Positions 11,600-30,193 of a DNA stretch of 38,126 nt are shown one piece after another. Where the stretch lies: assembly GCA_964558865.1 (NCBI GenBank), contig CAZLGN010000001.1:1-38126 (forward strand). The letters are read 5' to 3'. Origin of the DNA: an uncultured Methylomagnum sp. (lineage in GTDB: Bacteria; Pseudomonadota; Gammaproteobacteria; Methylococcales; Methylomonadaceae). The notes beneath the pieces were generated by a model, which made no database searches, had not been told where the DNA came from, and saw only the letters and a list, made by a program, of their open reading frames with translations. The position numbers and the translations under genes are program-made. How positions within the stretch are numbered: the stretch's first letter is position 1; every line of letters starts with the position of its first letter.

Positions 11600-11743
11600 T
11601 ACATTTTCTCCAGAATTCAGAATGACTAAAACTGTACTTCAATCTTCAATTAAATAAAACTACTTAACTTTAGTAAAGTTTAGAATTACACTCAACTACG
11701 AAGCAAGTTTTAACATTCTTTTTTTTATTCACGAGGTTGTCTT

Positions 11744-14700
11744 ATGCAAAATTCGCAAACACTTACCATCGATGGAAACCAAGCTGCCGCGATGGTGGCT
11801 TACAAACTCAACGAAGTTATTGCCATTTACCCCATAACTCCCGCGTCCACAATGGGCGAATGGGCGGACGAATGGGCTTCAAATAAACAGCTCAATTTGT
11901 GGGGAACCGTCCCGCAAGTCACCGAAATGCAAAGCGAGGCGGGCGCAGCGGGTGCAATTCACGGCGCATTGCAAGCGGGAACACTTGCTACGACATTCAC
12001 TGCCTCGCAAGGCTTGTTGTTAATGCTGCCGAATATGTACAAAATCGCGGGGGAATTAACGCCGACGGTTTTTCATATTGCCGCCCGTTCGCTTGCTTGT
12101 CAGGGTTTGTCTATTTTCGGCGACCACAGCGACGTAATGTCAGCTCGCATGACGGGATTTGGAATGTTATGCGCGAATTCGCCGCAAGAAGTGTTAGATT
12201 TCGCGCTAATCGCCCACGCTGTGACTTTAGAAAGTCGTATTCCGTTATTGCATTTTTTTGATGGTTTCAGAACTTCGCACGAAGTCGCCAAAATTCAAAC
12301 CTTCGACGATGACGTATTTCGCGCCATGATTCAAAACAATTGGATTACCGAGCATCGAAATCGGGCTTTAACGCCTAATAAGCCCGTTATGCGTGGTACC
12401 GCGCAAAATCCTGATGTTTATTTTCAAGCGCGTGAAACTGTAAATCTCTATTACGATGCAATGCCTACGATTGTGCAAAATGCAATGAATCGCTTTACAG
12501 AATTGACGGGGCGTGTTTATCGCTTATTTGAATATGAAGGCGCGGAAAATGCTAAACAAGTCATTATTATCATGGGTTCGGGTGCCGAAGCGGTTGCGGA
12601 AACGGTCGAGTATTTGAATCGAAAAGGCGAATCCGTTGGCGTTTTGAAAGTCCGTTTATATCGTCCTTTTGATGCGGAAAGTTTGCTCGCCGCGTTGCCT
12701 GAATCGTGCAAAAAAATTGCCGTTTTAGACCGAACCAAAGAGCCTGGCGCAGACGGCGAACCGCTTTACAAAGACGTTTTAACCGCGATTGCACAAAATT
12801 ATTTGAGTGGTGCGTCGAAATTTTCAGAATTACCTATCGTTGTCGGGGGACGTTACGGCTTGTCGTCGAAAGAATTTACGTCTGGAATGATTAAAGCGAT
12901 TTTCGAGGAATTGAAATCCGCACATCCAAAAAATCAGTTCACCATCGGCATCAACGATGACGTGACGCATAGCAGTTTGCCATGGGACGCAAGTTACCGC
13001 ACAGATTCACTTGCCGATACCTTTCAAGCAATGTTCTACGGTTTAGGCAGCGACGGCACGGTCGGTGCGAACAAAAACACCATCAAAATTATCGGCGAAG
13101 GAACCGATTTAAACGCGCAAGGTTATTTCGTCTACGATTCCAAAAAATCAGGCGCGGTCACCGTTTCGCATTTACGTTTTGGTTCGCAACCGATTCGCGC
13201 TACTTATTTGATTTCCGAAAATGACGCGAATTTTATCGGCTGTCATCAATCGGTTTTCCTTGAACGTTACGATATGTTGGCGAACGCGGCGGAAAATGCG
13301 GTGTTTTTGTTGAATTCGCCTGAACCGCTTGAAAAAGCGTGGGAATCGTTGCCAACCAAAATGCAGCAACAAATGTTTGCTAAAAAAATCCGTTTTTATG
13401 TCATCGATGGTTACGCGGTTGCTGAAAAAACGGGCATGGGCAGACATATCAACACCATTATGCAAACTTGTTTTTTTGCGATTTCAGGCGTGTTGCCGCA
13501 AGAACAAGCGATTACCGCGATTAAACACGCCGTCGAAAAAACCTACGGTAAAAAAGGGCAGCGTATGATTGAATTGAACATGCGAGCGATTGATGAAACG
13601 TTGGCGAATTTGCACATTGTGCCGTTGCAAAACGTCGTCGATTCGCAAATTGTGCTTAAATCTAATATCAACGATTCTGCGCCTGAATTTATTAAAAACG
13701 TCACGGGCGAAATTATCGCGGGGCGCGGCAATGCGTTACCCGTTAGCGCGATGCCGATTGATGGCACCTTTCCAACTGGCACAGCAGCTTATGAAAAACG
13801 AAATTTAGCTCTCGAAATTCCCGTTTGGGAAAGTGATTTGTGTACCCAATGTGGCAAATGCGTCATGGTTTGTCCGCACGCTGTCATTCGTAGCAAAATT
13901 TACCCGCTCGCTGAATTAAAAAATGCGCCAGAAACTTTCAAATACACGCCGATGCTAGGCAAAGATTTCCCCGACGGTTTAGCGATGAGTTATCAAGTTG
14001 CGCCTGAAGACTGCACTGGCTGTAATTTGTGTGTCGATATTTGTCCGATTCGAGACAAATCGAACGCTAGCCGCAAGGCTTTAAATATGCAGCTGCAACC
14101 GCCATTACGCGAAGTCGAACGCGAAAACTGGAATTTCTTTTTAACGATTCCCGAATATGACCGCCGTTTATTGAAAACGAACACGATTAAAGGTGCGATG
14201 GTGTTGCAGCCGTTGTTTGAATTTTCAGGCGCGTGTGCGGGTTGTGGCGAAACGCCTTATATTAAACTTGCGTCACAACTCTTTGGCGACCGAATGTTAG
14301 TCGCAAATGCAACAGGCTGTTCATCAATTTACAGCGGCAATTTACCCACAACACCGTGGACAAAAAATGCTGAAGGTCGTGGCGTGGCATGGAGTAATTC
14401 GCTGTTTGAAGATAATGCCGAATTCGGTTTAGGAATGCGCGTGGCGTTAGATAAGCAAACAGAACACGCTGAAGAATTACTCTTAGCGTTGCATGAACAA
14501 ATAGGCATTGAGTTAGTTGAAGATATTTTAAGAGCCGATCAATCCACAGAAGCGGGAATTTATGAACAACGTGAGCGAATTGTGGATTTAAAAGAGGAAT
14601 TGAAAACTATCGCTCATCCACTTGCCGCTCAACTGCTGGAATTAGCGGATTATTTATGCAAAAAAAGCGTGTGGATTATTGGCGGTGATGGTTGGGCGTA

Positions 14701-15376
14701 TGACATTGGTTATGGCGGTCTCGACCACGTTTTAGCGAGTGGGCGCAATGTGAACATTTTGGTTTTAGATACCGAAGTGTATTCCAACACAGGCGGACAA
14801 ACCTCAAAATCTACGCCGCGTGGTGCGGTGGCGAAATTTTCAGCAGGCGGCAAAGCCTCTGCGAAAAAAGATTTGGCATTACTCGCAATGGATTATCCCA
14901 ATGTTTATGTCGCACACGTTGCTTATGCGGGTAAAGATACCTAAACACTGAATGCGTTTTTAGAAGCCGAAGCTCATGAAGGCACGTCGATTATTATTGC
15001 TTACGCGCCTTGTATCGCGCACGGTGTGGATTTGTCCAACAATCATCGTCAACAAAATCTCGCGGTAAAAAGTGGGTATTGGTCGTTATTCCGTTTTGAC
15101 CCGAACAGACTTAAACAAGGCAAAAATCCGATGCGGCTTGATTCGCCTGAACCATCGATTTCTTATCGAGAATTTGTGCAAACCGAAACCCGTTTCAGTA
15201 TGTTGTGGCAAACGCATCCCGAAGCGGCAGAGGAATTTTTAGCACAGGCGCAGCAAGACGTAAAAAATCGCTATCACTTTTATAAACAACTTTCGGAATT
15301 AGAGTGGGACGATACAACGAGCGTTTCATCGTTCAAAGCACAAATCAAAACCGCAGTGGAGAAAGACAATGGTTGA
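11744..15376 (+). pseudogene. nifJ: Pyruvate:ferredoxin (flavodoxin) oxidoreductase (PFOR/NifJ type), interrupted by a single in-frame TAA at 14942-14944
   Basis: ORFs 11744..14944 and 15026..15376 are in the same frame, and the 81 nt between them contain no further stop. Read through, the translation is a continuous PFOR sequence (...AYAGKDT*TLNAFLEAEAHEGTSIIIAYAPCIAHGVDL...). Two ferredoxin-type CxxCxxCxxxCP clusters and the TPP-binding GGDGWAYDIG motif are present. If the stop is a sequencing error, this is an intact CDS of about 1210 codons. Confidence 0.9.
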
Positions 15377-16382
15377 TTTAACGACAAATTATTTGGGTTT
15401 GAAATTGGTAAATCCATTAGTGGCTTCTGCGTCGCCATTGACGAAAGCCTTAGATAGCGCGAAATGTTTGGAAGATGCTGGCGTGTCAGCATTGGTAATG
15501 CACTCGTTGTTTGAAGAAAAAATTGCATCGGAAGAACAACATAATGCGCGATTTTTTTATCAGCAATCGCTCGGACACGGTGAAGCGGATTCGTTTCACC
15601 CGCTGCACCACGATGTACAAACCTATCAAGACCGCTATTTAGAAAACCTGCAAAAACTCAAAGCAGGATTATCAATTCCGATTATTGCCAGTTTAAACGG
15701 CACGTCTTTGAGTGGCTGGGTTGATTACGGCAAACAATTAGAACAAGCAGGCGCGGATGCTCTCGAACTCAATGTTTATCACCTCGCGGCGAATGGCGAC
15801 GAAAGTGGAGAACAGGTTGAACAACGTTATTTGGACATTTTGCGCGAATTGAAAACGCGCGTTCAAATTCCGATTGCGATGAAAATTTCGGCGCAATTTA
15901 GTTCGCCGATTCATTTTGCCAAACGGCTGGAAGCGACTGGCGCGAATGGTTTGACGATTTTTAATCGTTTTTATCAGCCCGATATTGATTTAGAAACGTT
16001 GGAAGTTGTGCCGAAATTAGAACTTTCGACACCACAAGAAGCGTTGTTGCGAATTCGTTGGACGGCGTTGTTGTACGGGCGCACAAATTTATCGTTAGCC
16101 GTGACGGGCGGTTTTCATCAAACGCCCGATATTTTAAAAGCCTTGCTCGCGGGTGCAGATGTGGTGCAGCTTTGCAGTGTTTTATTGAAAGATGGCGTGG
16201 GACGGTTAAGCACAATTTTGACTGAACTCGAAACGTGGTTAGACGCACATGATTACGAATCGATTGAGCAGCTCAAAGGCAGCGTCAGCCAGCAAAACGC
16301 GATTGATCCAAGTGCGTATGAACGCGCCAATTATGTGCAGGTTTTAGATAATTATTCTGGCGCGTCTGGCGTGTTGCGGTGA
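15369..16382 (+). CDS. Dihydroorotate dehydrogenase-like TIM-barrel flavoprotein, probably not a true DHOD
   Basis: 337-aa ORF whose ATG overlaps the nifJ stop by 8 nt. DHOD-like N-terminus (LGLKLVNPLVASASPLT) and FMN-phosphate motif (VTGGFHQTPDILKALLAGADVVQLCS) are present. The position of the catalytic-base motif (ELN-SCPN or SSPN in true DHODs) reads ELNVYHLA. Confidence 0.8.
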   Translation: MVDLTTNYLGLKLVNPLVASASPLTKALDSAKCLEDAGVSALVMHSLFEEKIASEEQHNARFFYQQSLGHGEADSFHPLHHDVQTYQDRYLENLQKLKAGLSIPIIASLNGTSLSGWVDYGKQLEQAGADALELNVYHLAANGDESGEQVEQRYLDILRELKTRVQIPIAMKISAQFSSPIHFAKRLEATGANGLTIFNRFYQPDIDLETLEVVPKLELSTPQEALLRIRWTALLYGRTNLSLAVTGGFHQTPDILKALLAGADVVQLCSVLLKDGVGRLSTILTELETWLDAHDYESIEQLKGSVSQQNAIDPSAYERANYVQVLDNYSGASGVLR

Positions 16383-16387
16383 TTCCT

Positions 16388-18073
16388 ATGAATCAATTCG
16401 ATATTGGGTCAACAATGCGAAAACTACTTATTTTTATCGCTTTAGGCTGTCCCGTTTTATCTTGGGCAGAAGGCGGCGGAACAGAATCGATGGATAGACC
16501 GAGTATGCGTCCATTACCTGAATTTCCCGCCACCGAACCCAATCGCCCCGATTTCAAACTTCCTCCTGTTCCCGAAAATATCCCGCAACAAACTAGCGAA
16601 CAACGCCAATTTGATATAGTCCGAATCGAATTTGACGGTAATACGGTTCTTGACGAAAAATCGCTCCGTGAATCAGTGCAATCGTATGAACGACGTGGCG
16701 TTACCCTCAACGAATTAGAAGAGCTACGTTTAAAAATTACCCAACGTTATATCGACCAAGGTTATGTGAATTCGGGGGCGATTTTGACGGCGGATGCTTT
16801 TAACGATGGCGTTCTGCGTTTCAAAATGCAGGAAGGACATTTAGACGAAATCATTATTCACGGTCAAGAAGGGTTGCGCGAAAATTATATTGCAAATCGT
16901 CTGCGCGGAGATTCGGAACAACCATTGAATTTACAAACGTTACAAGACCGTTTTCAAATGCTTTTGACCGACCCGCTGATTAGTCGAATGAATGGGCGTA
17001 TTTTGCCCAGCAATTCACCCGCGCAAAGTATTCTCGATGTAGATGTGACTCGCGCTCAACCTTACCAACTCAGTTTGCTCGGTAATAACCAACGTCCGCC
17101 GTCTATCGGTGCTGAAGCCTTTGGCGTAAATGGTTGGGCGCGAAATTTGACGGGATTTGGTGATTTGCTCGATTTTACGTTTTATACCAGCGCGGGTTCC
17201 AATCGTTACACGGGCAGTTTTAGTGTTCCGATTACCGACCAAGACACGCAAGTTTTCTTTCGTTTTGACGAGGGCGATTCGTCGGTTCAAGAGCAACCGA
17301 TTCGCAAAATCAACGTCACCAGCCAAGTCCATAATTTAGAAGGCGGCATCAGTCATCCGCTAATCAACACCTCAAAACAACGTTTGAATTTTGGCACGTT
17401 GCTCGCCATTCGAGAAAACGAAACGTTTTTAGATGGCAAGCCATTTTCATTTGTCGCAGGCGATTCAACAGGTCATACGCAAGCGACCGTGTGGCGGGCT
17501 TTTCAAGATTATATGCAACGTTGGGAAAATCACGCGCTGTCGTTACGTTCGACCTTTAGCGTCGGACTCAATACACTCGGTGCCACACCCAAAAAGAGTA
17601 GTGAGTTTTTTGCCTGGTTAGGTCAGGCGCAATATGCCTATCGCGTGAATGAAGAAGGTTCGCAAGTGGTTTTGCGTGGCAACAGCCAATTAAGTAACGA
17701 TAAGTTATTGCCGTTGGAGCGCATTGCGATTGGCGGCATGGGAACAGTGCGCGGCTATCGAGAAAATCAATTAGTACGCGACGAAGGTTACAACGTTTCG
17801 GCAGAATACCGTTATCCTGTTTTAGGTGGCGCAACGTCTACCGATGCCCAAATTCATCTCAATCTAGTGCCATTTATGGATTATGGCAGCGCGTGGAATC
17901 AAGGCGAAACAGCGCAAAATTTGTTTTCAGTCGGCGCAGGATTGGAATTTGATTGGCAACGTTTTCACAGCGGGTTTTATTACGGTTACGCTTTGAACAA
18001 ACCAACCACCGAGCAACAAGGTGATTTACAAGATGCGGGGATTCATTTCAACGCCCGTTTAGACCTGTTTTAA
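16388..18073 (+). CDS. ShlB/FhaC/HecB-family two-partner-secretion outer-membrane transporter (TpsB)
   Basis: The tracked ORF starts at GTG 16379, a GTGA overlap with the upstream stop. ATG codons at 16388 and 16415 are alternative starts. It has a signal peptide (MRKLLIFIALGCPVLSWA) and a POTRA_2-like region (IEFDGNTVL...LRLKITQRYIDQGYVNSGA). The beta-barrel carries the conserved loop-6 VRGY motif and FMDYGSAW. Confidence 0.9.
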   Translation: MNQFDIGSTMRKLLIFIALGCPVLSWAEGGGTESMDRPSMRPLPEFPATEPNRPDFKLPPVPENIPQQTSEQRQFDIVRIEFDGNTVLDEKSLRESVQSYERRGVTLNELEELRLKITQRYIDQGYVNSGAILTADAFNDGVLRFKMQEGHLDEIIIHGQEGLRENYIANRLRGDSEQPLNLQTLQDRFQMLLTDPLISRMNGRILPSNSPAQSILDVDVTRAQPYQLSLLGNNQRPPSIGAEAFGVNGWARNLTGFGDLLDFTFYTSAGSNRYTGSFSVPITDQDTQVFFRFDEGDSSVQEQPIRKINVTSQVHNLEGGISHPLINTSKQRLNFGTLLAIRENETFLDGKPFSFVAGDSTGHTQATVWRAFQDYMQRWENHALSLRSTFSVGLNTLGATPKKSSEFFAWLGQAQYAYRVNEEGSQVVLRGNSQLSNDKLLPLERIAIGGMGTVRGYRENQLVRDEGYNVSAEYRYPVLGGATSTDAQIHLNLVPFMDYGSAWNQGETAQNLFSVGAGLEFDWQRFHSGFYYGYALNKPTTEQQGDLQDAGIHFNARLDLF

Positions 18074-18089
18074 CTTTTGGGAGTTTGAA

Positions 18090-20324
18090 ATGAATCAATT
18101 TCGTATCTTAATTATCGCAACGGGGTTCTGGGCGGGTGTTGTTCACAGCGCAGATTTTGAAGACCTTTATCTGCAAAGCAAAAATCGTTTAGCGCAAGAA
18201 CAATACGGTTTAGCGATAGAATCGCTGAACGATGCAAACCAACTCGCATCAACACCAGAACAACAAGCACAAACGTTGGGAACACTCGGTTTAACCTATT
18301 ACCGAATGCAACGTCGAGAACAAGCCGCAAAATTATTGCGTGAAGCGGTGGCGTTAAATGTCGGTGAAAACACGACCCGCGCTCGTTGGTTAGGCACGCT
18401 CGCCGATTTAGAGTTGGATAAAAAAAATCTCGACACAGCCCGTTCACTGTATGAACAAGCCTTACCGTTAGCGGAAAAGGATGGCGAATTGATGGCAAGT
18501 TTGCGCTTGGGCAAAGTGGCAACCTTACCGTTAGCTGAACAATTGGCAGAATTAAAAACGCTTAAAGATGATTTGGATACGCTTGAAAATCCTGAAACGA
18601 AAGCTCGTTTGCTGATCAATTTAGGCGAACAAGCCCACAAACTTGGCGCGATAGAACTGGCGTTTAACAGTTTTGAACAAGCGCGGCGCAGCGGTGAACA
18701 TCAACCGCGTTTGCAAGCCGAAGCAATGGGACAACTCGCACAATTGTATGAAGAGCAAACTCGTTTTGATGAAGCCTTGCGTTTGAATTCGCAAGCCATC
18801 GACGCGGCGAAAAAAGTGGATGCCCATGATTTGTTGTTGGAATTGGAATGGCGGCAAGGACGTTTGCAGCGGGCGTTACAACATTTGCCTGAAGCGACAG
18901 CCGCGTATCAACAAGCAATCGAACACATTGAAGCGATTCGCCAAGATATTCCCGTTGAATACCATAACGGGCGGTCTTCGTTTCGAGAATTGTTAGAACC
19001 TGTTTATTTGGGTTTGGCAGATTTGTTGTTGACGCAAGCCAGTCAAAAAAGTGGTAAAGCTAAAAATGACCTGTTGCGCCATGCACGAGCAACGGTGGAA
19101 CTGATTAAACAGTCTGAACTCGAAGATTTTTTAGGCGGACGTTGTGGCGTTCACAGCAACAAAAACGCGCTGTTGGAAGCGGTCGAACCCACTACTGCAA
19201 TTATTTACCCGATTCTGTTGCCTGATCGTTTGGAATTGTTAGTCAGTAGCGGCAATGAAATTCGCCAATACACGCAACCCATTGGCGCGGCAGAGATGCA
19301 AGATTTAACCAAGCATTTAGCACACAGCCTGCGAACCAATAAATATGATATTAAGGCGGCATCTGAAAAACTGTATCAACAACTGATTGCACCGATTGAA
19401 CCGTGGTTGCAGGAGCAAAATATCAAAACGTTGGTGATGGTTCCTGATGGAGTTTTACGATTGATTCCGCCAGCGGTTTTGTACAACGGTGAACATTATC
19501 TGATTGAAAATTACGCGGTGGCGACTTCGCCAGGTTTGACATTGTTTGAACCCGCGCCGTTGCAACAACGTGGGATTAAGGCATTGTTAGCAGGAATGAG
19601 TGAACCTGGTTCGGTGGTTGACCATTTGCCAGCTGCTTTTTTGCAAGCCTTGGCGGGAAATCGTGGTTTGAGTAATCCAGAAGATATGAGTGAAGCGGCA
19701 GTCAAAAGCCGACAACTTGAACTCGAACGGATGATAAAAGAGCCTGTTTTTCGTCAGCAACTCAAAGAAAAATTAAGTTTGCCAGGCGTTGCAGAAGAAA
19801 TTAAAAGTCTGCAAAAAGAAGTTTCCAATACATCGCTGATGAATGAAGGTTTTACGGTTGAGGGTTTCAAAAACCAAGCGATTCAAGAGCCTTATTCTGT
19901 GGTGCATATTGCTTCGCACGGTGTATTTGGTAAAACGGCGGCTGCCAGTTTTGTAATGGCGTTCGATGGCGTGATTGATATGGATGATTTAGAACGACTT
20001 TTAAAATCCGACAAATTCTCAAAACAACCAGTGGAATTATTAACGTTGAGTGCGTGTCAAACAGCTGAAGGCGATGATCGTGCGCCGTTGGGATTAAGCG
20101 GGATTGCGCTAAAATCCAAAGTGCGTAGCGTACTGGGAACGTTGTGGCCTGTTTCGGATGAAGCGGCATCGTTGTTAATGGCGGAATTTTACAAAGCTCT
20201 TTCGCAACCTGGAATCAGCAAAGTTCAAGCCTTGCGACAAGCGCAAATCGTATTACTCAAACAAAAAGACCTCGAAAATCCGTTTTATTGGTCGCCATTT
20301 ATTTTGGCGGGGAGTTGGTTATGA
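18090..20324 (+). CDS. Secreted TPR-repeat / CHAT-domain (caspase-like) peptidase
   Basis: 744-aa ORF with GGGAG upstream of the ATG. It has an N-terminal signal peptide (MNQFRILIIATGFWAGVVHS-AD) and about 330 aa of TPR-like helical repeats. The C-terminal CHAT domain has an intact His/Cys dyad: VVHIASHG (His codon at 19917-19919) and LLTLSACQTA (Cys codon at 20055-20057). The tail is the typical PFYWSPFILAG. Confidence 0.9.
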   Translation: MNQFRILIIATGFWAGVVHSADFEDLYLQSKNRLAQEQYGLAIESLNDANQLASTPEQQAQTLGTLGLTYYRMQRREQAAKLLREAVALNVGENTTRARWLGTLADLELDKKNLDTARSLYEQALPLAEKDGELMASLRLGKVATLPLAEQLAELKTLKDDLDTLENPETKARLLINLGEQAHKLGAIELAFNSFEQARRSGEHQPRLQAEAMGQLAQLYEEQTRFDEALRLNSQAIDAAKKVDAHDLLLELEWRQGRLQRALQHLPEATAAYQQAIEHIEAIRQDIPVEYHNGRSSFRELLEPVYLGLADLLLTQASQKSGKAKNDLLRHARATVELIKQSELEDFLGGRCGVHSNKNALLEAVEPTTAIIYPILLPDRLELLVSSGNEIRQYTQPIGAAEMQDLTKHLAHSLRTNKYDIKAASEKLYQQLIAPIEPWLQEQNIKTLVMVPDGVLRLIPPAVLYNGEHYLIENYAVATSPGLTLFEPAPLQQRGIKALLAGMSEPGSVVDHLPAAFLQALAGNRGLSNPEDMSEAAVKSRQLELERMIKEPVFRQQLKEKLSLPGVAEEIKSLQKEVSNTSLMNEGFTVEGFKNQAIQEPYSVVHIASHGVFGKTAAASFVMAFDGVIDMDDLERLLKSDKFSKQPVELLTLSACQTAEGDDRAPLGLSGIALKSKVRSVLGTLWPVSDEAASLLMAEFYKALSQPGISKVQALRQAQIVLLKQKDLENPFYWSPFILAGSWL

Positions 20325-22645
20325 ACACATTTAAATTTTTAGCCTTTGGTTTTGCGATTTCTACGCAATTTGCCTTCGCAGAAGGCATTGCCACCGACGG
20401 TACAATGGGCGCGGCGCAAACATTAAGCGGCGCAAACGTCACCATTCCGCAAACTCTCGGCACAACGGTGGGCAATAATTTGTTCCACAGTTTCGCCGAT
20501 TTCAATATCAACTCTGGTCAAACAACGACTTTCACAGGTGGCGATAATCTGCAAAACGTTATTTCTCGCGTCACGGGCGGTAACGCTTCAAACATCAACG
20601 GCGTTTTAAAATCTGAAATCAAAAACGCCGATTTTTACTTCATCAATCCCAACGGCATTACCTTTGGCACAAACTCTCAAGTCGATGTGCCTGCGGCGTT
20701 TCATGTCAGCACCGCCGATAAAATGGATTTTGATAAAAACGGCGGGGTGTTTTATGCCGATTTGAACAAAGACAGCAAACTCAGTAGCGATGCGCCTGCC
20801 GCTTTTGGCTTTTTGGGAACCTCGAAGGCGAATAATGGGTTGATTGATTTCGATAATTCCAAAATCATTTTGAAGCCTGAGAAAACGCTAGATGTCGTCG
20901 CAGGAGAAATCAAAGTTGAAAACAAATCAGCTATTACTGAACCAGCAGGAGAAGTGCGTTTAGTGGCTATGCAAGGTGAAGGAGTTGTGAGTTTGGAAAA
21001 AATTAACGATACATTATCGCTACCAAACACAACGCCAACAACCTCTAATGCAGGGAAAATATCGGTAAAAGACAGTGTTATCGATATGACTGGCGACGGT
21101 GGTGGTCGCTTCGCTCTTTGGGGAGGTGAAACTTCGCTCAAAGACAGCAATGTATTTGCAGATAATAATGGAGCTAAAGATGCTACTTCTGCGAAAGGCG
21201 TTGATATTTATGTTGATTCGCTAGAAATAGATAATGTGAATGTTAATTTCCTAGATGCAGACAAAGGTAGTATTTCAGTTGATGCCTTAAATGCTGGTAA
21301 AGCAGGGAATCTAGTGGCGAAAGTAACCAATTTTTTGAATATATCCAATGGTGGATACATAACGAATCGTGTTTGGCGTCAGGGTAATGGCGGTAATCTC
21401 ACCGTTGCAGTGGATACTCTGAAAATGGATAGTAAAGGTAATCATTCAGTTGGCGGGACAGGTATTTATTCAGGTGTAGAGGAAGGTAGTGGTCAAGCAG
21501 GCGATGTGAGTGTTAGCACACGGGTAATAAATCTTTTACACAGTGGAGTCATTTCAAGTTCAACATGGGCAGAAGGTAACGCTGGGAATGTAACTGTTAT
21601 AGCCTCCGATACTATAGTCATCGACGGTCAATCTGAAAATTTTTGGGGAACAGGTATTTTTACTGACGCACTTCCTGGCAGTAGCGGCAATGCGGGTAAA
21701 GTGTCCGTGAATACCAATAAACTTACCATCCTAAATGGTGGACAAATATCAAGTTCTACTCGAAGTCAAGGAAGTGCTGCTGGAAAAGTATCAGTTACTG
21801 CAAATAATTTGCAAATTGATGCTAAGTGGAATTCTTCCCAGCTAACAGGTATTTTTTCAAAGTCCCGTGGTACAGAATCAAGCGGTGTAACAGGTGATTT
21901 ATCCGTTACAGCGAATGACCAGCTACATATTAACGATGGTGGTGCTATTAGCATTTCAAATGAAGCGAATGATGTCACCAACTCCATCTCAATTAGCCCA
22001 GGCAAAATCATCGTCACCGCACCTAATATCGACATGAAAAACGGTAAAATCAGCGGTAATTCCGCTGGCAACGTTGCCGCAGGAAATATCGCCGTAAATT
22101 TTTCAAATCACCTAAATATGAATTCTTCGTTTATTACCACCACAGCCAATACAGGTAATGGAGGGGCTATAAAAATCAACGGTGGCGAATTGATTTACTT
22201 AAAAGATTCGGGAATCAAAACCACGGTCAGTGGCGAAAACGGCAACGGCGGTGATATTTCAGTCAATGCAGAAATGCTCGTGATGGACACAGGTTTAATT
22301 CAAGCCAATGCGAAAAGTGGCAATGGCGGCAACATTGATTTAGCGTTGCAAGCTCTTATTCCCAGTGCCGACAAGCTAATCAAAGGCGGTAAAACAGTTG
22401 ATTGGAACAGTTCGCCTTCAACAATAAACGTCATTCAAGCTGCTTCACAAACGGGCGTGAGTGGTACAGTCACAAACTCTGCACCACAACTTAATTTGAG
22501 CGGCGTGTTAGCAAATGTCGGCAATGCTAATTTTGATAACAGCCTCATCAGCCAAGATTATTGCGCTTTAGGTCAAGGTAGTTCGCTTGCTAAAAAAGGC
22601 AAAGGCGGTTTGCCGATAAGAGCGAAAGATTTGCAGGTGAAGTAA
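20321..22645 (+). CDS. Filamentous-haemagglutinin-N-terminal (TPS) domain exoprotein, a short TpsA-like beta-helix protein
   Basis: I prefer the ATG at 20321, which has GGGGAG 7 nt upstream and forms an ATGA overlap with the CHAT stop, over the tracked TTG at 20288.
- Signal peptide: MNTFKFLAFGFAISTQFAFA.
- TPS motifs: NLFHSFADFNI, ISRVTGGNASNINGVL, FYFINPNGITFG.
- Periodic repeats of the type GNGGNLTV, GNAGNVTV, GNAGKVSV and GNGGNIDL.
- The protein ends ...DYCALGQGSSLAKKGKGGLPIRAKDLQVK. Confidence 0.9.
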   Translation: MNTFKFLAFGFAISTQFAFAEGIATDGTMGAAQTLSGANVTIPQTLGTTVGNNLFHSFADFNINSGQTTTFTGGDNLQNVISRVTGGNASNINGVLKSEIKNADFYFINPNGITFGTNSQVDVPAAFHVSTADKMDFDKNGGVFYADLNKDSKLSSDAPAAFGFLGTSKANNGLIDFDNSKIILKPEKTLDVVAGEIKVENKSAITEPAGEVRLVAMQGEGVVSLEKINDTLSLPNTTPTTSNAGKISVKDSVIDMTGDGGGRFALWGGETSLKDSNVFADNNGAKDATSAKGVDIYVDSLEIDNVNVNFLDADKGSISVDALNAGKAGNLVAKVTNFLNISNGGYITNRVWRQGNGGNLTVAVDTLKMDSKGNHSVGGTGIYSGVEEGSGQAGDVSVSTRVINLLHSGVISSSTWAEGNAGNVTVIASDTIVIDGQSENFWGTGIFTDALPGSSGNAGKVSVNTNKLTILNGGQISSSTRSQGSAAGKVSVTANNLQIDAKWNSSQLTGIFSKSRGTESSGVTGDLSVTANDQLHINDGGAISISNEANDVTNSISISPGKIIVTAPNIDMKNGKISGNSAGNVAAGNIAVNFSNHLNMNSSFITTTANTGNGGAIKINGGELIYLKDSGIKTTVSGENGNGGDISVNAEMLVMDTGLIQANAKSGNGGNIDLALQALIPSADKLIKGGKTVDWNSSPSTINVIQAASQTGVSGTVTNSAPQLNLSGVLANVGNANFDNSLISQDYCALGQGSSLAKKGKGGLPIRAKDLQVK

Positions 22646-22647
22646 CA

Positions 22648-24543
22648 TTGCAAACGCCCTTCAAAAAATGGTTACTTCATTCTCATGTAAGTTGCTCTCT
22701 ATTAGGCTTGTTGTCTGCCGTTGTAATTATCGTTTTGCAATACATCGGCATTTTACAAGGTGCAGAATTACAAGCATTTGACCAATTTTTACTGAAACGT
22801 CCAACAATAGCGATTGATGACCGTATCGTGGTAATTGGTGAAACTGAACCCGATATTCGTCGTTTCGGACATCCACTTTCTGATCAAGTGTTAGCGGACG
22901 CACTGCAAATACTAGAAAAAAATAACGCGCGAGTCATTGGCGTAGATAAATACCGCGATGTTGCGGTAAAACCTGGCACAAAAGAACTCAAAAACGTATT
23001 GCAAAAATACAGCAACATTGTTTGGATTTTTTTCACGGGTAATTCAAAACAGGAATTTATTCCTGCGCCAGAAGTCATAGTAAATAACCCTGAAAGAACA
23101 GGTTTTAATGATCTCGTGGAAGATAGCGACGGTGTGGCGCGGCGGGGATTGTTATTTTTAGAAATGGATGGCGACAATTATTACGCTTTTCCTTTGTTAC
23201 TGGCTTTGCATTATTTGGCGGGTGAAAACATCGCGGCTGGCAGCGATGAACAAGGAAATTTAAACCTCAATGGTGTGAGTTTGCCACCAATAGATTCAAA
23301 ATTTGGAGCCTATAACGCCGTAGATACGGGCGGCTATCAAATCATGCTCGATTATCCAGGGCTGCCGCAATCATTCAGTTTTTTCACCTTGTCTGATTTA
23401 TTCGATGGCAAAATTAAAAACAACGCGCTCAAAGATAAAATTGTCCTCATCGGTGGAATGGCACCTAGTTTGAGTGATTACCGCTTGTTGCCGAATGAAA
23501 TGAAACGTTTTGGCGTTGAGCATCACGCTTATTTTGTTAGCCAATTATTAAACACAGCACTTGAAAAAAAATCGCCCTTACGCGCTTGGTCAAATAATGT
23601 TGAATATGGTTGGTTATTATTGTGGTGTTTAATCGGTGCATTGACAGGATTTTGCAGAAAGCAACTGCTGCAACTATGCACATTGATAATAGCTGAGATT
23701 TTACTGTTACAAGGTTTAAACATTATTTTACTCAATGAAAATTTGTGGACACCTTTAGTCGCACCATTACTGGGCTGGGGAAGTGCGTTAGCGTTGAGTA
23801 TTTTATATTTTTCCAGTCAAGAACGTGCTGAACGTCGCCAATTGATGCAATTATTTGCGAGCCACGTTTCGCCCGAAGTGGCTAAACGATTGTGGGACGC
23901 ACGAGAACAATTTTTTACAGAAGGCGGTGTTAAACCTGATACTTTAACTGCCACAGTGTTATTTACAGACATCACAAACTTCACCACGCTTGCAGAAAAA
24001 ATGGAGCCGCTGATTTTAATGAAATGGCTAAATGAATATATGGGCGAAATGAGCAACATCGTCACGCATCATAATGGCATGGTGAACAAATATATTGGTG
24101 ATGCGATTATGGCGATTTTTGGTGTACCCGTAAAACGTGAAACAGAAACAGAAATTGCTACCGACGCGCAACATGCCGTTAAATGCGCCATTGAATTTAA
24201 TCGGCGGTTGCGTGAACTTAATCAAAAATGGCAAACACAAGGGCTTCCTGAAATTACTATGCGAGTCGGTATTTACACGGGGTCATTAGTGGCAGGTAGT
24301 TTTGGTGGTGCAGTACGAATGGAGTACACTGTCATTGGCGATACAGTTAATGCTGCCTCACGTTTAGAAAGTTTCGATAAAACAACGGCAGAACCTGATA
24401 ATCAGCATCCGTGCCGCATTTTGATTGGAGAAACGACTTATCACTGCATCTCGTCTCTTTACGAAACCAAAATGGTCGGTGAGTACAAACTAAAAGGCAG
24501 AAATGAATACTCAAAAATTTATCAAGTTATTGTTTCACGATGA
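22648..24543 (+). CDS. CHASE2-sensor class III adenylate/guanylate cyclase, with a probable class IIIb adenylate cyclase signature
   Basis: The TTG start lies 2 nt after the TpsA stop, with AGGTGA 7 nt upstream. The layout is TM1, a periplasmic region of about 280 aa beginning with the CHASE2-typical LQGAELQAFDQFLLKRP, three transmembrane helices, then the cyclase homology domain (VLFTDITNFT, NKYIGDAIMAIFG, YTVIGDTVNAASRLES). Confidence 0.9.
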   Translation: MQTPFKKWLLHSHVSCSLLGLLSAVVIIVLQYIGILQGAELQAFDQFLLKRPTIAIDDRIVVIGETEPDIRRFGHPLSDQVLADALQILEKNNARVIGVDKYRDVAVKPGTKELKNVLQKYSNIVWIFFTGNSKQEFIPAPEVIVNNPERTGFNDLVEDSDGVARRGLLFLEMDGDNYYAFPLLLALHYLAGENIAAGSDEQGNLNLNGVSLPPIDSKFGAYNAVDTGGYQIMLDYPGLPQSFSFFTLSDLFDGKIKNNALKDKIVLIGGMAPSLSDYRLLPNEMKRFGVEHHAYFVSQLLNTALEKKSPLRAWSNNVEYGWLLLWCLIGALTGFCRKQLLQLCTLIIAEILLLQGLNIILLNENLWTPLVAPLLGWGSALALSILYFSSQERAERRQLMQLFASHVSPEVAKRLWDAREQFFTEGGVKPDTLTATVLFTDITNFTTLAEKMEPLILMKWLNEYMGEMSNIVTHHNGMVNKYIGDAIMAIFGVPVKRETETEIATDAQHAVKCAIEFNRRLRELNQKWQTQGLPEITMRVGIYTGSLVAGSFGGAVRMEYTVIGDTVNAASRLESFDKTTAEPDNQHPCRILIGETTYHCISSLYETKMVGEYKLKGRNEYSKIYQVIVSR

Positions 24544-24582
24544 AAAATTGAGTTCAATCCAACCGCTATTTGGAGTCACGTT

Positions 24583-25167
24583 ATGAACAAAAAACTTGTC
24601 TTGCTCGTTATTTTTATTTCATTGTTACCTTCATTCACAAATGCTGACGGCTTACTAACATACAAGCCGCCGCAAATGACAACTTTACAAGGTCGCATTG
24701 GAGGTGGCACGCGCAGTTTGAATTTAGCCACACCAAAAATTCAACTATTAGCACCCAAGCACATTGCGTTAACAAGTCAAACACAACCAATTTTGTATTG
24801 GTATTCATCAGAACCCAATCAACAAAAAGTAGAATTTATTTTAATTGAAGAAGGGGCAGATGAACCTTTATTAGAAGAAAGTTTGTCGATGACCACTGTT
24901 GGCATAAACCGCATCCGTTTAAAAGATTACAACGTGTCGTTGCAAGCGGGTAAAAAATATAAATGGTCTATCAATAATTCTGCACAAAGTTTAGAAGATG
25001 CCAGTGCAACGTTGATTTATCAATTCCCTACTGTCTCGTTATCTACTATCGAACAAAAAGCAGAAAACGGTTACTGGTACGATACGCTACAGCAACTCAT
25101 TGAAAGTCATTCGCCACTTGCCAATGATTTACTCAAACAAATTGGCATAGAAATACCCCCGCTTTAA
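24583..25167 (+). CDS. Secreted DUF928-family protein
   Basis: 194-aa ORF with GGAG upstream of the ATG and a signal peptide (LLVIFISLLPSFTNA). Family-like motifs recalled from DUF928 are YKPPQ...GRIGGGTRS, PILYWY, KVEFILIEE, LQAGKKYKW and NGYWYDTLQQL. Confidence 0.8.
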   Translation: MNKKLVLLVIFISLLPSFTNADGLLTYKPPQMTTLQGRIGGGTRSLNLATPKIQLLAPKHIALTSQTQPILYWYSSEPNQQKVEFILIEEGADEPLLEESLSMTTVGINRIRLKDYNVSLQAGKKYKWSINNSAQSLEDASATLIYQFPTVSLSTIEQKAENGYWYDTLQQLIESHSPLANDLLKQIGIEIPPL

Positions 25168-25180
25168 ATTCGTACTGATT

Positions 25181-26704
25181 ATGTTTTGTCTGGTTCAATC
25201 ACTGCTAAAAGACACCGTTTATCCACATTCGGTAAGCGAAATTGAATTGATTGAAACCCACATTTCGTGGATTTTTTTGACGGGCAATTTTGCTTATAAA
25301 ATCAAAAAGCCCGTTCAATTCGATTTTTTAGACTTTTCGACGTTAGAAAAGCGGCATTTTTACTGTGAAGAAGAATTGCGATTAAATCGCCGTTTTGCGC
25401 CGAATCTTTATTTGCAAGTCGTTCCAATCACAGGAACGGTGGAACATCCACAAATTGACGGCAGCAGTGAAACGATAGAATATGCCGTTAAAATGCAGCA
25501 ATTCCCCGCAGGTCAACTTCTGAGTGAAATGGCGAATTGCGGGGATTTGAACACAGAAATTATTGACCAACTCGCTGACCTCACCGCTGATTTTCATCAT
25601 CGCGCCACTTCTGATATTTCCCGCAGTCATTACGGAACAGCCGCCGAAATTCATCATTGGTTTTCAGGCAACTTCGCACCAATTCGTCCATTTTTTGATG
25701 TGGCGCAATTAGAAGTGTGGGGCGAGAAGGAATTGTTAAAAAATACGCTGTTAATTGAACAGCGCAAACAGCACGGTTTCATTCGAGAATGTCACGGTGA
25801 TTTGCATTTGGGAAATATCGTGTGGTTTGAAAATCGCGTTACGCCGTTTGATGGCATCGAATTCAATCCCGCTTTGCGTTGGATTGACGTAATGAATGAA
25901 GTTGCGTTTGCGGTGATGGATTTAGAACAACGCAATTTTAAACCGTTTGCCTATCGATTTTTGAACCGTTATTTAAGTCAAACGGGCGATTATTCAGGCT
26001 TGAGTTTGCTGCATTATTATTGCGTTTATCGGGCGTTGGTTCGCGCCAAAATTGCCTTATTGCGCTGGCAACAACATCGAAACCAGTTGGATTTTGTTGA
26101 CGCTGAAAGTTATCTCAAATTAGCAGAACGTTTCACTACACAAAAATCGCCGTTATTGATTATTACGCATGGTTTTTCGGGTTCAGGAAAATCCACCGTC
26201 AGCGCACAATTGGCAGAAAATTTAGGTTTGATTCATTTGCGTTCGGATGTTGAACGGCAACGGTTATTTGAGAAATCGGAGCAAAACATTTACAGTTCAA
26301 AACACACCCAACAAACATATCAAACGCTCGCCGATTTTGCCGCCACAATTCTCCATGCAGGGTTTTCAGTGTTGGTTGATGCGACGTTTCTTAAATTAGA
26401 CCAACGCGCTTTATTTCAAAAATTGGCAGCTAATCAAAACGTAGAATTTTTTATTTTAGATTTTCAGGCAACAAAGGAGGAATTAAGTCGTCGCATTCTT
26501 CAACGGCAACAACTCGGCAATGATTTTTCGGAAGCGACGTTAGCCGTATTGCAACAACAAATTAAATCTGCACAATCCCTGATTTCGACTGAACAACATA
26601 AAACGATTCAAATCGAAAACGTGGCAGATGCGTTAAAAAAATTACTTCATCATCTCCAAGGAGAACACCATGACACAACCAGTAAATTATATTCGTTGGT
26701 TTAA
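25181..26704 (+). CDS. Fused aminoglycoside-phosphotransferase-like kinase and P-loop (AAA/gluconate-kinase-like) ATP-binding protein
   Basis: 507-aa ORF. The N-terminal domain has IETHISWIFLTGNFAYKIKKPV and the protein-kinase-like catalytic loop CHGDLHLGNI. The C-terminal domain has the Walker A motif ITHGFSGSGKST. Its 3' end overlaps the ppsA start by 35 nt. Confidence 0.8.
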   Translation: MFCLVQSLLKDTVYPHSVSEIELIETHISWIFLTGNFAYKIKKPVQFDFLDFSTLEKRHFYCEEELRLNRRFAPNLYLQVVPITGTVEHPQIDGSSETIEYAVKMQQFPAGQLLSEMANCGDLNTEIIDQLADLTADFHHRATSDISRSHYGTAAEIHHWFSGNFAPIRPFFDVAQLEVWGEKELLKNTLLIEQRKQHGFIRECHGDLHLGNIVWFENRVTPFDGIEFNPALRWIDVMNEVAFAVMDLEQRNFKPFAYRFLNRYLSQTGDYSGLSLLHYYCVYRALVRAKIALLRWQQHRNQLDFVDAESYLKLAERFTTQKSPLLIITHGFSGSGKSTVSAQLAENLGLIHLRSDVERQRLFEKSEQNIYSSKHTQQTYQTLADFAATILHAGFSVLVDATFLKLDQRALFQKLAANQNVEFFILDFQATKEELSRRILQRQQLGNDFSEATLAVLQQQIKSAQSLISTEQHKTIQIENVADALKKLLHHLQGEHHDTTSKLYSLV

Positions 26705-29084
26705 TGAATTGACGATTGATGATGTGCCGTTAGTTGGCGGTAAAAATGCTTCGCTGGGTGAAATGTATCGCGAACTCGGGTCGCAAGGCGTACAAATTCC
26801 AAATGGTTTCGCAGTTACGGCAGAAGCCTATCGTTATATTTTGGATAAATCAAATAGTTGGGCGGCTTTGCACGAAGCGTTAGACGATTTGAATCCCGAA
26901 GACGTGAATGATTTAGCCAAACGCGCCCGAAAAGCGCGGGAAATTATTTACGCCGCGCCACTTCCCGAAGATTTAGAACAGCAAATCCTCGCCGCTTACA
27001 AAAAATTACAGGAACAATACGGCGAAGAATTGAGCGTTGCCGTTCGCAGTTCAGCCACCGCTGAAGATTTACCGACCGCGAGTTTTGCGGGACAACAAGA
27101 CACTTATCTCAACATTCGCGGCGAAGTGGTGTTGCTCGAATCGTGCAAACGTTGTTTTGCCAGCTTATTCACCGACCGCGCCATTCATTATCGTGTCGAT
27201 CAAGGTTTTGACCATTTCAAACTCGCGTTATCAATCGGTATCATGAAAATGGTGCGCTCCGACTTATCTGCCAGCGGCGTGATGTTTTCGCTCGACACCG
27301 AATCGGGTTTTAGCGACGTGGTATTTATTACGGGAGCTTACGGTTTGGGTGAAAATGTCGTACAAGGTGCCGTGGATCCCGACGAATTCTATGTGCATAA
27401 ACCGACGTTTGAACTTGGACACCGTGCCGTTTTGCAGCGAACGTAAAAAAAAAAAAAAATCAAAATGATTTACAGCGACCAAGACACGCGCGAATCGATA
27501 CAGAATATCGTTACCTCAAATGAAGAACGAAATCGGTTTTGTATTACCGATGCAGATGTGTTGACGCTTGCTGATTACGCGATAAAAATTGAAAAACATT
27601 ACAGTGCCAAAGCAGGTCACACCAAACCAATGGATATGGAATGGGCGAAAGATGGGCTTGATGGTGAGTTGTACATTGTGCAGGCGCGTCCTGAAACGGT
27701 TGTTTCGCAATTGCGCGGCATGATGTTGGAACAATACACGCTCAAAGAATCCGCTGTGCCGATTATTACGGGGCATTCAGTCGGCAGTAAAATTGCCACA
27801 GGCAACGCGCGAATCATCGAAAATGCTCAACAGCTTGGCGATTTTAAAGCAGGCGATATTTTAGTTGCCGATATGACCACACCTGATTGGGAACCTGTCA
27901 TGAAAATTGCGTCGGCGATTGTGACAAATCGTGGGGGCCGCACATGCCATGCGGCGATTATCTCGCGTGAATTAGGCGTTCCAGCGGTGGTCGGTTGTGA
28001 AAATGCCACGACCACAATTAAAAATAATTCGCCTGTCACGGTTTCTTGTGCCGAAGGAGATGTTGGCAAAGTGTACGCGGGAACGTTAGATTTCAAAGTC
28101 GAATCGACCGATTTATCGGGTTTGAAACGTCCAAAAACCAAAATCATGCTCAATATTGCCAATCCCGAAGTCGCGTTCAAAACCAGCTTTTTGCCAAATG
28201 ATGGCGTGGGGTTGATGCGGATGGAATTCATCATTACCGAATACATCAAAGCACATCCGATGGCGTTGATTCATCCAGAGCGTGTGCAAGATGCGAATGA
28301 ACGTGAACAATTAGCAAAATTAACGCGAAATTACGCTACGCCGCAAGAATTTTTCATCAGTAAATTAGCCGAAGGCGTTGGCACAATTGGCGCGGCGTTT
28401 TATCCGAAACCCGTTGTGGTGCGAATGTCTGATTTTAAAACCAATGAATATGCCACGCTTTTGGGAGGCAAGTGGTTTGAATTCGACGAAGAAAATCCGA
28501 TGATTGGCTTTCGTGGTGCGTCACGTTACACGCATCCTGCGTATGCCGAAGGTTTTGCGCTGGAATGCGCGGCAATGAAACGTATCCGCGACGACATGGG
28601 ATTGACCAATGTGATTTTGATGATTCCGTTTTGTCGGCGGGTTCAAGAAGCCAAAAAAGTGTTGGATTACATGGCGCAACTCGGTTTGAAACGTGGCGAA
28701 AACGGGTTGCAAATTTACGTCATGTGCGAAATTCCAAATAACGTGATTTCGATTGATGCGTTTTCTGAACATTTCGACGGCTTTTCGATTGGCTCGAATG
28801 ATTTGACGCAACTCACGTTGGGTGTTGACCGTGATTCGGCGATTTTGGCAGAAGATTTCGACGAACGAGATCACGGCGTAAAAGAGATGATTCGATTAGC
28901 GGTAACGGGTTCAAAACGTAACGGCAAACATTGTGGATTGTGCGGACAAGCACCGTCGGATTATCCTGAAATGGCGCAATTTTTGGTTGAAATTGGGATT
29001 GATTCCATGAGTTTAAATCCTGATACCGTTTTAAAAACCACGCAATTGGTTTTGGAAACAGAGAAACGATTGGCAAAAAGCTAA
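26670..29084 (+). pseudogene. ppsA: Phosphoenolpyruvate synthase (pyruvate, water dikinase), interrupted by a single in-frame TAA at 27444-27446
   Basis: ORFs 26670..27446 and 27465..29084 share one frame. Read through, the sequence is ...FYVHKPTFELGHRAVLQRT*KKKKIKMIYSD..., which aligns without gaps to my recollection of E. coli PpsA (...VHKPT...IVRRTMGSKKIRMVY...). The N-terminal VGGKNASLGEM, the phospho-His region TNRGGRTCHAAIISRELG and the PEP-utilising C-terminal domain are all intact. Confidence 0.9.
27445..27459 (+). repeat. A15 homopolymer tract inside ppsA, beginning within the in-frame TAA
   Basis: Direct count: T at 27444, then 15 consecutive A (27445-27459), then T at 27460. Confidence 0.95.
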
Positions 29085-29120
29085 TTAAATGTGCTTATTT
29101 AAAGACTTGGAATTTAAACT

Positions 29121-30140: not shown

Positions 30141-30163
30141 TTTTCCTATTTTTTTAGCGCGTA

Positions 30164-30184: not shown

Positions 30185-30193
30185 CGCCTAAAA

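Follow-up and report, generated by a model that had tools for sequence, protein, structure and literature searches.

What do a two-partner secretion (TPS) pair, a caspase-like protease, a membrane-bound cyclase and a small secreted protein of family DUF928 do side by side in a single gene run? The question is raised by a 38,126-nt stretch of DNA from an uncultured Methylomagnum sp. (assembly GCA_964558865.1, contig CAZLGN010000001.1, positions 1 to 38,126; the window herein), in which a sequence-only reading had proposed that five consecutive genes form one envelope-spanning device. Comparison of related loci leads us to a different description, in which the locus is the junction of two units, a near-obligate trio (the transporter TpsB, a periplasmic TPR-CHAT protein and the exoprotein TpsA) and a pair (a CHASE2 sensor and a DUF928 protein). 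Judged by their distribution across genomes, the two units appear to be joined far more often than chance would give, and the five genes are probably linked in function. That the locus works as a complete chain, in which CHAT processes the TpsA tail and/or DUF928 and CHASE2 transduces the result to cyclic AMP (cAMP), is a tentative proposal that we hold to be nearly, though not quite, as plausible as its opposite. The features concerned are as follows.

16415..18073, + strand: TpsB outer-membrane transporter; open reading frame (ORF) opens with GTG at 16379; POTRA_2 7.3e-18, ShlB 7.5e-26, Omp85 1.8e-11 (Pfam)
18090..20324, + strand: predicted secreted or periplasmic TPR-CHAT caspase-like cysteine protease; TPR_12 1.4e-16, CHAT 4.7e-54 (Pfam)
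20321..22645 (ORF 20288-22645), + strand: short TpsA exoprotein; TPS 4.2e-32 (Pfam), adhes_NPXG TIGR01901 1.6e-18 (NCBIfam)
22562..22615, + strand: TpsA C-terminal tail motif, C748-ALGQGSSLAKKGKGGLP; the motif ends 9 aa before the stop codon
22648..24543, + strand: CHASE2-sensor class IIIb adenylate cyclase (predicted); TTG start; CHASE2 4.9e-52, Guanylate_cyc 4.9e-28 (Pfam)
24583..25167, + strand: secreted DUF928 protein; DUF928 PF06051 7.8e-16, 58.8 bits versus a cut-off of 26 (Pfam)

The trio, the pair and their junction

All five domain assignments of the sequence-only reading held under hidden Markov model (HMM) search against Pfam, and its description of five tightly coupled genes with export signals or periplasmic domains was borne out by the junctions, signal peptides and topology. 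The TpsB and CHAT genes are separated by 16 nt, the CHAT and TpsA genes overlap by 4 nt, and the gaps from TpsA to the cyclase and from the cyclase to DUF928 are 2 and 39 nt, respectively. The likely start of TpsB is ATG 16415, which by start-codon reading gives the signal peptide MRKLLIFIALGCPVLSWA, and that of TpsA is ATG 20321, which shares an ATGA with the stop codon of CHAT and yields a product of 774 aa. N-terminal signal peptides are present on the TpsB, CHAT, TpsA and DUF928 proteins; the N-terminal hydrophobic segments of TpsB and DUF928 passed the hydropathy threshold, and no such segment did so in CHAT and TpsA, whose signal peptides were read from the sequence. Because the five genes are embedded in a ~18-kb co-directional run of metabolic genes (11744-30140), with genes for pyruvate:ferredoxin oxidoreductase (PFOR) and a dihydroorotate dehydrogenase (DHODH)-like protein upstream and for a kinase and phosphoenolpyruvate (PEP) synthase downstream, tight spacing alone does not delimit the unit. 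A promoter and terminator scan of 11000-30500 returned counts at chance level and left the transcription unit undelimited. The unit is delimited instead by genome comparison, since the same five genes occur with other flanks in locus L007. The kinase gene at 25181-26704, 13 nt past DUF928, was dropped as a candidate member: it overlaps the PEP synthase gene, travels with that gene in L001 and is absent from L007.

A metagenome scan with two short CHAT peptide patterns gave at least 489 confirmed relatives, with 80 loci retained at 35-81% identity. Where at least 4 kb was available on both sides, a TpsB gene accompanied CHAT in 15 of 16 loci and a TPS-domain gene in all 16, in at least four gene orders (B-CHAT-TPS, CHAT-TPS-B, TPS-B-CHAT and CHAT-B-TPS). 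CHASE2 or DUF928 was found in only 10 of the 80 loci, and both were absent from all nine with at least 8 kb on both sides. The cultured isolates Methylomonas sp. MO1 and Methylobacter sp. YRD-M1 likewise carry the trio only, without CHASE2 or DUF928. The closest homologues of the DUF928 and CHAT proteins bear the names Methylococcales, Methylococcaceae, Methylobacter, Methylomonas or Methylovulum, which places the source among methanotroph-like Gammaproteobacteria and not among the cyanobacteria.

Anchoring the comparison on DUF928 brought the pair into view. The family comprises 7139 cluster representatives at E<=1e-3, and a one-genome-per-species scan with the pattern E[NAS]GYWYD[AVT], which samples only part of it, gave 34 loci from Methylococcales, Magnetococcales, Chthoniobacterales, Rhodospirillaceae, Beggiatoa, Desulfatirhabdium, another deltaproteobacterium, Competibacteraceae, Myxococcota and cyanobacteria (Acaryochloris, Leptolyngbyaceae and Nostoc). 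Neighbouring genes were classified with custom-built HMMs, and at some six loci the resulting classes agreed with Pfam calls. In the set of 40 unique DUF928 loci, CHASE2 was present in 20 and directly adjacent in 19 of these 20; CHAT was present in 14, TPS in 11, TpsB in 10 and at least one trio member in 18. Twelve of the 40, mostly Acaryochloris paralogues, had none of CHASE2, CHAT, TPS or TpsB.

Co-localisation beyond the source genome, on which the earlier proposal had been made to depend, was found in five loci that contain all five families: L001 and L014 have the same five genes and the same flanks (68-72% identity), L007 has the same five genes with a second TpsA (60% identity), and L011 and L012 have all five families in shuffled order and orientation (DUF928 identity 28-32%). 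The four non-output families, again rearranged in order and orientation, are together in these five and in L019, a Magnetococcales metagenome-assembled genome (MAG) in which a Ser/Thr kinase replaces the cyclase. Four Methylococcales loci, L004, L006, L009 and L016 (40-50% identity), contain the CHASE2-cyclase and DUF928 pair alone. The claim of a single five-gene device did not survive these comparisons, since trio and pair are each commonly found alone: trio-only in nine of nine long CHAT loci, pair-only in those four. The suggestion that the domain set tends to co-occur in filamentous cyanobacteria stood in part, as partial sets are present in Nostoc (L040) and Leptolyngbyaceae (L036) and most Acaryochloris DUF928 genes are solitary.

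Some trio loci that lack DUF928 contain a CHASE2 cyclase, and between it and CHAT lie members of two other signal-peptide families of ~210-225 aa (L082:3100-3777, L085:5833-6462, L089:2199-2858 and L099:2047-2706). These small secreted proteins, considered as FecR- or DUF4384-like, had no Pfam match; they may be analogues of DUF928.

How the two units relate where they are joined can be explained in more than one way. Sensors are often encoded beside operons under their control, and the main alternative to a physical relay is that the CHASE2-DUF928 pair senses an unrelated cue and that its output, cAMP acting through a Crp-type regulator, controls expression of the adhesin and protease genes. 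The pair-only Methylococcales loci indicate that the pair can work without the trio, and a Crp-like gene adjoins the cyclase in L012. The sensor genes of the window, however, lie inside the run, the cyclase starting 2 nt past the TpsA stop codon, which is unusual for a low-abundance regulator; and DUF928 is tied to the trio itself, both by an anti-sigma fusion in L025, described below, and in L023, L024 and L027, where CHAT or TPS genes directly flank it without CHASE2. We regard control of this kind as unlikely, while giving it more weight than the alternatives that follow.

Another suggestion is that the two units are mere neighbours, brought together by mobile DNA or chance without any functional link. 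The pair is missing from most trio loci, many DUF928 genes are solitary, a resolvase gene lies near L007 and transposase genes lie near L003 and L012, all of which would fit. Yet CHAT lies within 10 kb of 14 of the 40 DUF928 genes, versus about 1% expected on a rough estimate that places the family once or twice per genome, and the association recurs across phyla at 25-32% identity with differing orders, orientations and CHASE2 outputs, a pattern not explained by descent of one island. The units have been joined repeatedly, in Gammaproteobacteria, Magnetococcales, Verrucomicrobiota, Desulfobacterota and cyanobacteria, and we consider simple neighbourhood improbable.

The secretion trio and the TpsA tail

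TpsB comprises a signal peptide, a POTRA_2 domain and a ShlB/Omp85 barrel, and its loop 6 bears the motif GTVRGYRE (read in translation), which contains the (V/I)RG(Y/F) signature of type Vb transporters; its orthologues in L001, L007, L011, L012, L047 and L048 gave the same Pfam calls. The neighbouring TpsA has a signal peptide, an N-terminal TPS domain with FINPNGITFG and the NLFHSF and NPNGI motifs, and a beta-helix; Pfam found the TPS domain alone, with no toxin or other further domain. On these sequence features the trio is a member of two-partner secretion (type Vb), and TpsB-dependent export of TpsA is predicted.

CHAT-linked TpsA proteins range from 705 to >2200 aa with both ends shared, and TpsA orthologues from 890 to 1343 aa with the ends conserved; in close relatives, lengths of 775, 987, 1001 and 1116 aa occur. 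One close lineage has an extra gene of ~609 aa, without a Pfam match, between CHAT and TpsA (L013:2816-4645 / L002:2-1825), and in L007 the second TpsA gene (L007:10579-13245) follows DUF928. The C-terminal consensus of TpsA is NVIQAA..G.SG…P.LDLSG.L…C(x3-8)SSL…G[RK]GG[LIVF][PA], and the tail motif C…SSL…G[RK]GG[LIV]P is found in essentially all complete TpsAs tied to this CHAT family. Long-tail variants have ~30-45 extra residues and a second Cys within the last few; the Methylococcales variant, to which the TpsA of the window belongs, stops 9 residues past GGLP and has one Cys (C748). The conserved tail is a candidate periplasmic anchor and/or protease site.

The CHAT protein consists of a signal peptide (aa 1-21), ~8 TPR pairs (aa 23-347) and a CHAT domain (aa 423-742). 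Both residues of the dyad that had been described as intact, including Cys656, are in place (His610, nt 19917-19919; Cys656, nt 20055-20057), and the dyad is kept in every related CHAT protein examined, bar one gene split over two ORFs (L012). With a CHAT domain and His-Cys dyad following TPR repeats, the protein falls within the TPR-CHAT family, and proteolytic activity is predicted. A second, non-catalytic cysteine, Cys352 (nt 19143-19145), lies in a motif E[DN][FY][FL]xxxC that is kept in distant TPS-linked CHAT proteins; exactly two Cys beyond residue 30 were counted in 46 of 84 trio CHAT proteins. The AlphaFold2 (AF2) model of CHAT (mean predicted local distance difference test score, pLDDT, 75.7) is confident in the TPR region and poor around the active site. 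Foldseek matched this model to the TPR-CHAT protein of Craspase (7xss_C, 8d9f_A) and to the periplasmic TPR-CHAT protein DdvA (8rw5, 8rot). A sequence search of the CHAT protein against the PDB returned TPR proteins only, and both Craspase and DdvA were reached by the fold search.

Where CHAT works is suggested by a fusion. In L032:3686-9136 a single protein of 1816 aa comprises a TPS domain, beta-helix, tail motif, TPRs and CHAT (Pfam), and its gene adjoins those for a CHASE2 histidine kinase and DUF928; the tail motif (C978…GRGGLP 990-995) sits precisely where the helix gives way to the TPR-CHAT part. CHAT proteins encoded on their own carry a Sec signal but lack a TPS domain. The simplest interpretation puts CHAT to work in the periplasm, beside the TpsA tail. 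That it acts on the tail is a possibility we take seriously, even if on balance we would not count on it.

The same fusion has been weighed as a sign that CHAT is an effector that leaves the cell together with TpsA or is carried out by it, which would make the system an extracellular protease or a device for competition, and the polymorphic length of TpsA among close relatives (775 to 1116 aa) would suit such a role. Free CHAT proteins, however, have the Sec signal only and so no known TpsB export route, and no immunity-like gene, toxin domain or VENN-type motif was found with Pfam. The C-terminal part of the CdiA precursor, moreover, stays in the periplasm. So does that of the FhaB precursor (PMC5422565). 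Export of CHAT as an effector is, in our estimate, very unlikely. The locus also differs from CdiBAI systems, as its TpsA has a TPS domain only and ends 9 aa past GGLP, and the next genes encode the cyclase and DUF928.

The CHASE2-DUF928 pair and the proposed relay

Hydropathy and Pfam place transmembrane (TM) segments of the CHASE2 cyclase at aa 18-36, 318-336, 343-361 and 370-388 and its cyclase domain at aa 434-621. A periplasmic stretch of ~280 aa, by hydropathy, separates TM1 from the three-helix block, so the protein has the layout of a CHASE2 sensor, with periplasmic CHASE2 between TM1 and a three-TM block and then an output domain. Its best cyclase alignment was to the P. aeruginosa adenylate cyclase CyaB (3R5G, 6.5e-31). 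The catalytic residues are intact (FTD441, K481-x3-D485 (GD485) and the YT..GD.VN.ASR block / YTVIGDTVNAASR), comprising the metal-binding Asps, Lys, Thr, Asn and Arg, and the adenylate-type Lys/Thr specificity residues predict a class IIIb adenylate cyclase. Anti-phage defence, by a Pycsar-like cyclase or caspase-like abortive infection, is barely credible: the cyclase domain matches PADLOC PycC models (3.4e-26), CHAT weakly matches BovA (1.9e-5) and DdvA shows that a periplasmic TPR-CHAT protein can regulate defence genes, but the PycC match reflects common class III ancestry and is weaker than the match to CyaB, the absence of a Pycsar effector gene and the adenylate-type residues set the locus apart from Pycsar, the flanking genes belong to central metabolism, and four of the five proteins are wholly extracytoplasmic, with the fifth sensing through a periplasmic domain.

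The outputs of CHASE2 proteins encoded beside DUF928 include adenylate cyclase, Ser/Thr kinase (L019), histidine kinase (L032, L036 and L038), GGDEF (L029) and a CHAT-CHASE2 fusion (Nostoc L040). As the output domain varies and CHASE2 and DUF928 are constant, CHASE2 fits the role of the envelope-reading part. In the Nostoc MAG, CHAT is N-terminal to CHASE2 in the fusion (L040:7381-9735), followed by DUF928 and then by a TPR-CHAT protein of 1261 aa with a signal peptide; neither a TPS nor a TpsB gene is found within 10 kb.

The DUF928 protein matches the family model and has a signal peptide, in keeping with a secreted member of the family. The AF2 model (pLDDT 82.5) has an Ig-like beta-sandwich (aa 53-146) and a C-terminal helical part with the invariant GYWYD. 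Foldseek matched it to generic Ig-like, Calx-beta and FN3 sandwiches only, and because the matches are generic we draw no function from the fold. The mature N-terminus, predicted as GLLTYKPPQMTTLQGRIGGGTR (motif nt 24661-24714), combines disorder with conservation: the most conserved linear motif of the family, [YF]xPPxxGxPxx…G(G)[ST]R with a small residue next, stands directly after the predicted signal-peptide cut, and its GGG[ST]R part is conserved from Gammaproteobacteria to cyanobacteria and predicted to be disordered. In DUF928 proteins of Beggiatoa and Desulfatirhabdium (L023:9440-10546 and L024:9103-10197; also L027:3020-3925), 23-26 tandem (VSRG)n or (F/L)SRG tetrapeptides take the place of the one GGG[ST]R motif, after the signal peptide and before the Ig-like domain, the amplified part being the xSRG end of the motif. 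From their sequence, these arrays fit a unit acting as a site or ligand.

A second arrangement of DUF928 is found in L025, a deltaproteobacterial MAG in which the trio stands beside a sigma-factor gene of the extracytoplasmic function (ECF) type (1113-1667; Sigma70_r4 3.4e-7 in Pfam), a gene for an anti-sigma factor composed of zf-HC2, a TM segment, a Pro-rich linker and DUF928 (1741-3036; zf-HC2 and DUF928 in Pfam), and a second DUF928 gene. In this anti-sigma factor the DUF928 motif falls in the stretch that links the membrane to the Ig domain, the place expected for a site-1 cut. DUF928 thus appears to serve as a receiver on the periplasmic side in either of two forms, a free protein encoded beside CHASE2 or a domain of an anti-sigma factor. 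No ECF sigma/anti-sigma pair came up when the 26 window ORFs of 110 aa or more were searched with Pfam; the sigma/anti-sigma genes of L025 are a parallel wiring of the same parts. L030:8882-10522, with a long N-terminal extension and DUF928, resembles the L025 anti-sigma fusion.

We propose a mechanism in which TpsB would export the TpsA helix and the conserved tail would stay at the pore or in the periplasm, like the tails of HMW1, HxuA and CdrA. The periplasmic TPR-CHAT protein would dock on or cut this tail, setting display or release of the helix in a manner resembling the action of LapG on CdrA, and DUF928, in the periplasm, would be a co-receptor for CHASE2 or a regulator of it. In loci that join the two units, CHAT might also act on the DUF928 motif (…GGG[ST]R plus small residue), or DUF928 might read the TpsA tail, and CHASE2 would turn the state of the surface protein into cAMP. 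That CHASE2 reads the trio at all is somewhat doubtful when taken by itself. A more specific version, in which the TpsA filament is coupled through its tail to CHAT, CHAT cuts the Arg-containing DUF928 motif, processed DUF928 or its peptide is the CHASE2 ligand or co-receptor, and the same cut is the site-1 cut of the DUF928 anti-sigma factor in other lineages, we regard as decidedly unlikely to be right in full. Candidate readers of the cyclase signal are the cyclic nucleotide monophosphate (cNMP)-binding proteins that adjoin the module in L011 (10690-13858) and L012 (12805-13509), namely a cNMP_binding-SpoIIE protein, a glutaminase-STAS-cNMP_binding protein and a Crp-like regulator.

Several observations weigh against this proposal. 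Each unit often occurs alone, neither requiring the other, as in the nine long CHAT loci without CHASE2 and DUF928 and the four Methylococcales loci with the pair alone. The neighbour classes come from custom-built HMMs, with Pfam checks of about half a dozen loci and selected proteins from others, and the TPS-CHAT fusion is one example from one MAG. The CHAT model has a pLDDT of <50 at aa 610-674, and an HMW1-type disulfide anchor cannot form within the TpsA of the window because its tail has a single Cys. Between the TpsA tail G[RK]GG and the DUF928 GGG[ST]R the likeness extends over few residues of low complexity, the same search of 26 window ORFs found no cNMP-binding effector, and every mechanistic step is one that we infer.

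The surroundings of the module hold further observations. The PFOR gene is broken by an in-frame TAA at 14942-14944, beyond which the frame goes on as PFOR sequence, and a 116-aa ORF at 15026-15376 matches the last 88 positions of TIGR02176 (3.1e-25); the TAA could be a nonsense mutation, a sequencing error or recoding. PEP synthase is spread over two ORFs (26670-27446 and 27465-29084), broken at a run of 15 A (27445-27459), and is a single 804-aa gene in relatives (L001), so that the split is most likely a homopolymer indel in the assembly. Other signalling genes of the window (4215-9206 and 36232-38001) encode a 1250-aa hybrid histidine kinase (GAF-PAS-HisKA-HATPase-2xREC-Hpt), a REC-histidine kinase and a REC-REC-Hpt protein, and are not linked to the module in relatives.

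Relation to known systems

Taken singly, two-partner secretion, CHASE2 receptors and the periplasmic control of adhesin release are known; the trio is apparently undescribed. No paper defining the system turned up in the literature searched, where most subscription journals lay outside coverage; within that coverage we found neither a TPS trio equipped with its own caspase-like protease, nor this TpsA tail, nor DUF928-CHASE2 pairing described, and no paper pairing a CHAT domain with two-partner secretion or hemagglutinin. CHAT and CHASE go unmentioned in two TPS/Omp85 reviews. The sole mention of DUF928 found in the literature searched places it in the neighbourhood of CHASE2 and WD40 genes of Nostoc punctiforme (PMC5587647). 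CHASE2 ligands were still called unknown in 2023 work (PMC10581220), and periplasmic TPR-CHAT proteins have no known substrates (PMC11506125). The trio is widespread, with at least 489 confirmed metagenome matches, and the DUF928-CHASE2 pairing is a testable lead to what CHASE2 sensors detect. Our proposal predicts that DUF928 partners with CHASE2 and that CHAT has as its substrates the tail of TpsA and the N-terminal motif of DUF928. If CHAT-cut DUF928 were the CHASE2 ligand or co-receptor, it would be the first defined CHASE2 input, and the first substrates of bacterial periplasmic CHAT proteases would be in hand.

Parts of the locus resemble several characterised systems. Craspase (type III-E CRISPR gRAMP with Csx29) shares the TPR-CHAT architecture, the His-Cys dyad and a structural match, but is cytoplasmic, RNA-guided, active in phage defence and without a secretion signal. 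DdvA, the only characterised periplasmic TPR-CHAT protein and a Foldseek match to the CHAT model of the window, has been proposed as a signal-induced site-1 protease in transmembrane signalling (PMC11506125). In DdvA the CHAT domain, whose active site is incomplete, forms one protein with the anti-sigma factor, whereas the CHAT protein of the window is a separate periplasmic protein whose gene accompanies a TPS pair, and its signalling partner would be CHASE2 with DUF928, or an anti-sigma-DUF928 fusion in L025. In Sinorhizobium meliloti, the outer-membrane protein NsrA is required for sensing of a protein signal by the CHASE2 cyclases CyaK, CyaD1 and CyaD2 (PMC7529298, PMC13001267). There too a CHASE2-class III cyclase is tied to an outer-membrane beta-barrel protein and the signal is proteinaceous; NsrA, however, is a single large protein of ~1200 aa that may carry FecR-like parts and is set beside TpsB by description, and CHAT, TpsA and DUF928 are not reported in that system.

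For the TpsA tail, the nearest parallels are HMW1/HMW1B and HxuA/HxuB of Haemophilus, short surface-retained TpsA proteins with a Cys-containing C-terminal anchor. HMW1 and HxuA are reported to be retained by their TpsB through a disulfide loop at the periplasmic C-terminus (PMC5422565), and the long-tail relatives of the TpsA of the window have two Cys bracketing the motif. The protein of the window is unlike them in its short tail with a single Cys, and HMW1 and HxuA lack dedicated protease or sensor genes; the tails are likened here by description.

Closest in working, we suggest by analogy, is the CdrA/CdrB-LapG-LapD system of P. aeruginosa, in which the periplasmic cysteine protease LapG cuts the periplasmic tail of the TpsA adhesin CdrA and so releases the adhesin (PMC5422565). 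Both systems have a TpsB with a beta-helical TpsA, a periplasmic cysteine protease and an inner-membrane signalling protein with a periplasmic domain. The protease of the window is instead a TPR-CHAT protein of caspase fold whose gene lies inside the tps operon, the LapG site differs from the tail motif, and DUF928 is without counterpart. No LapG-type (DUF920) or LapD-type (HAMP-GGDEF-EAL) protein is encoded by the 26 window ORFs examined with Pfam. LapD is a receptor for cyclic di-GMP (c-di-GMP) that signals from the inside out, and the membrane protein encoded here is a CHASE2 receptor with an enzymatic output, which would signal from the outside in. The locus may thus work like a LapG/LapD-type release system without belonging to that group, using an unrelated protease and the opposite direction of signalling.

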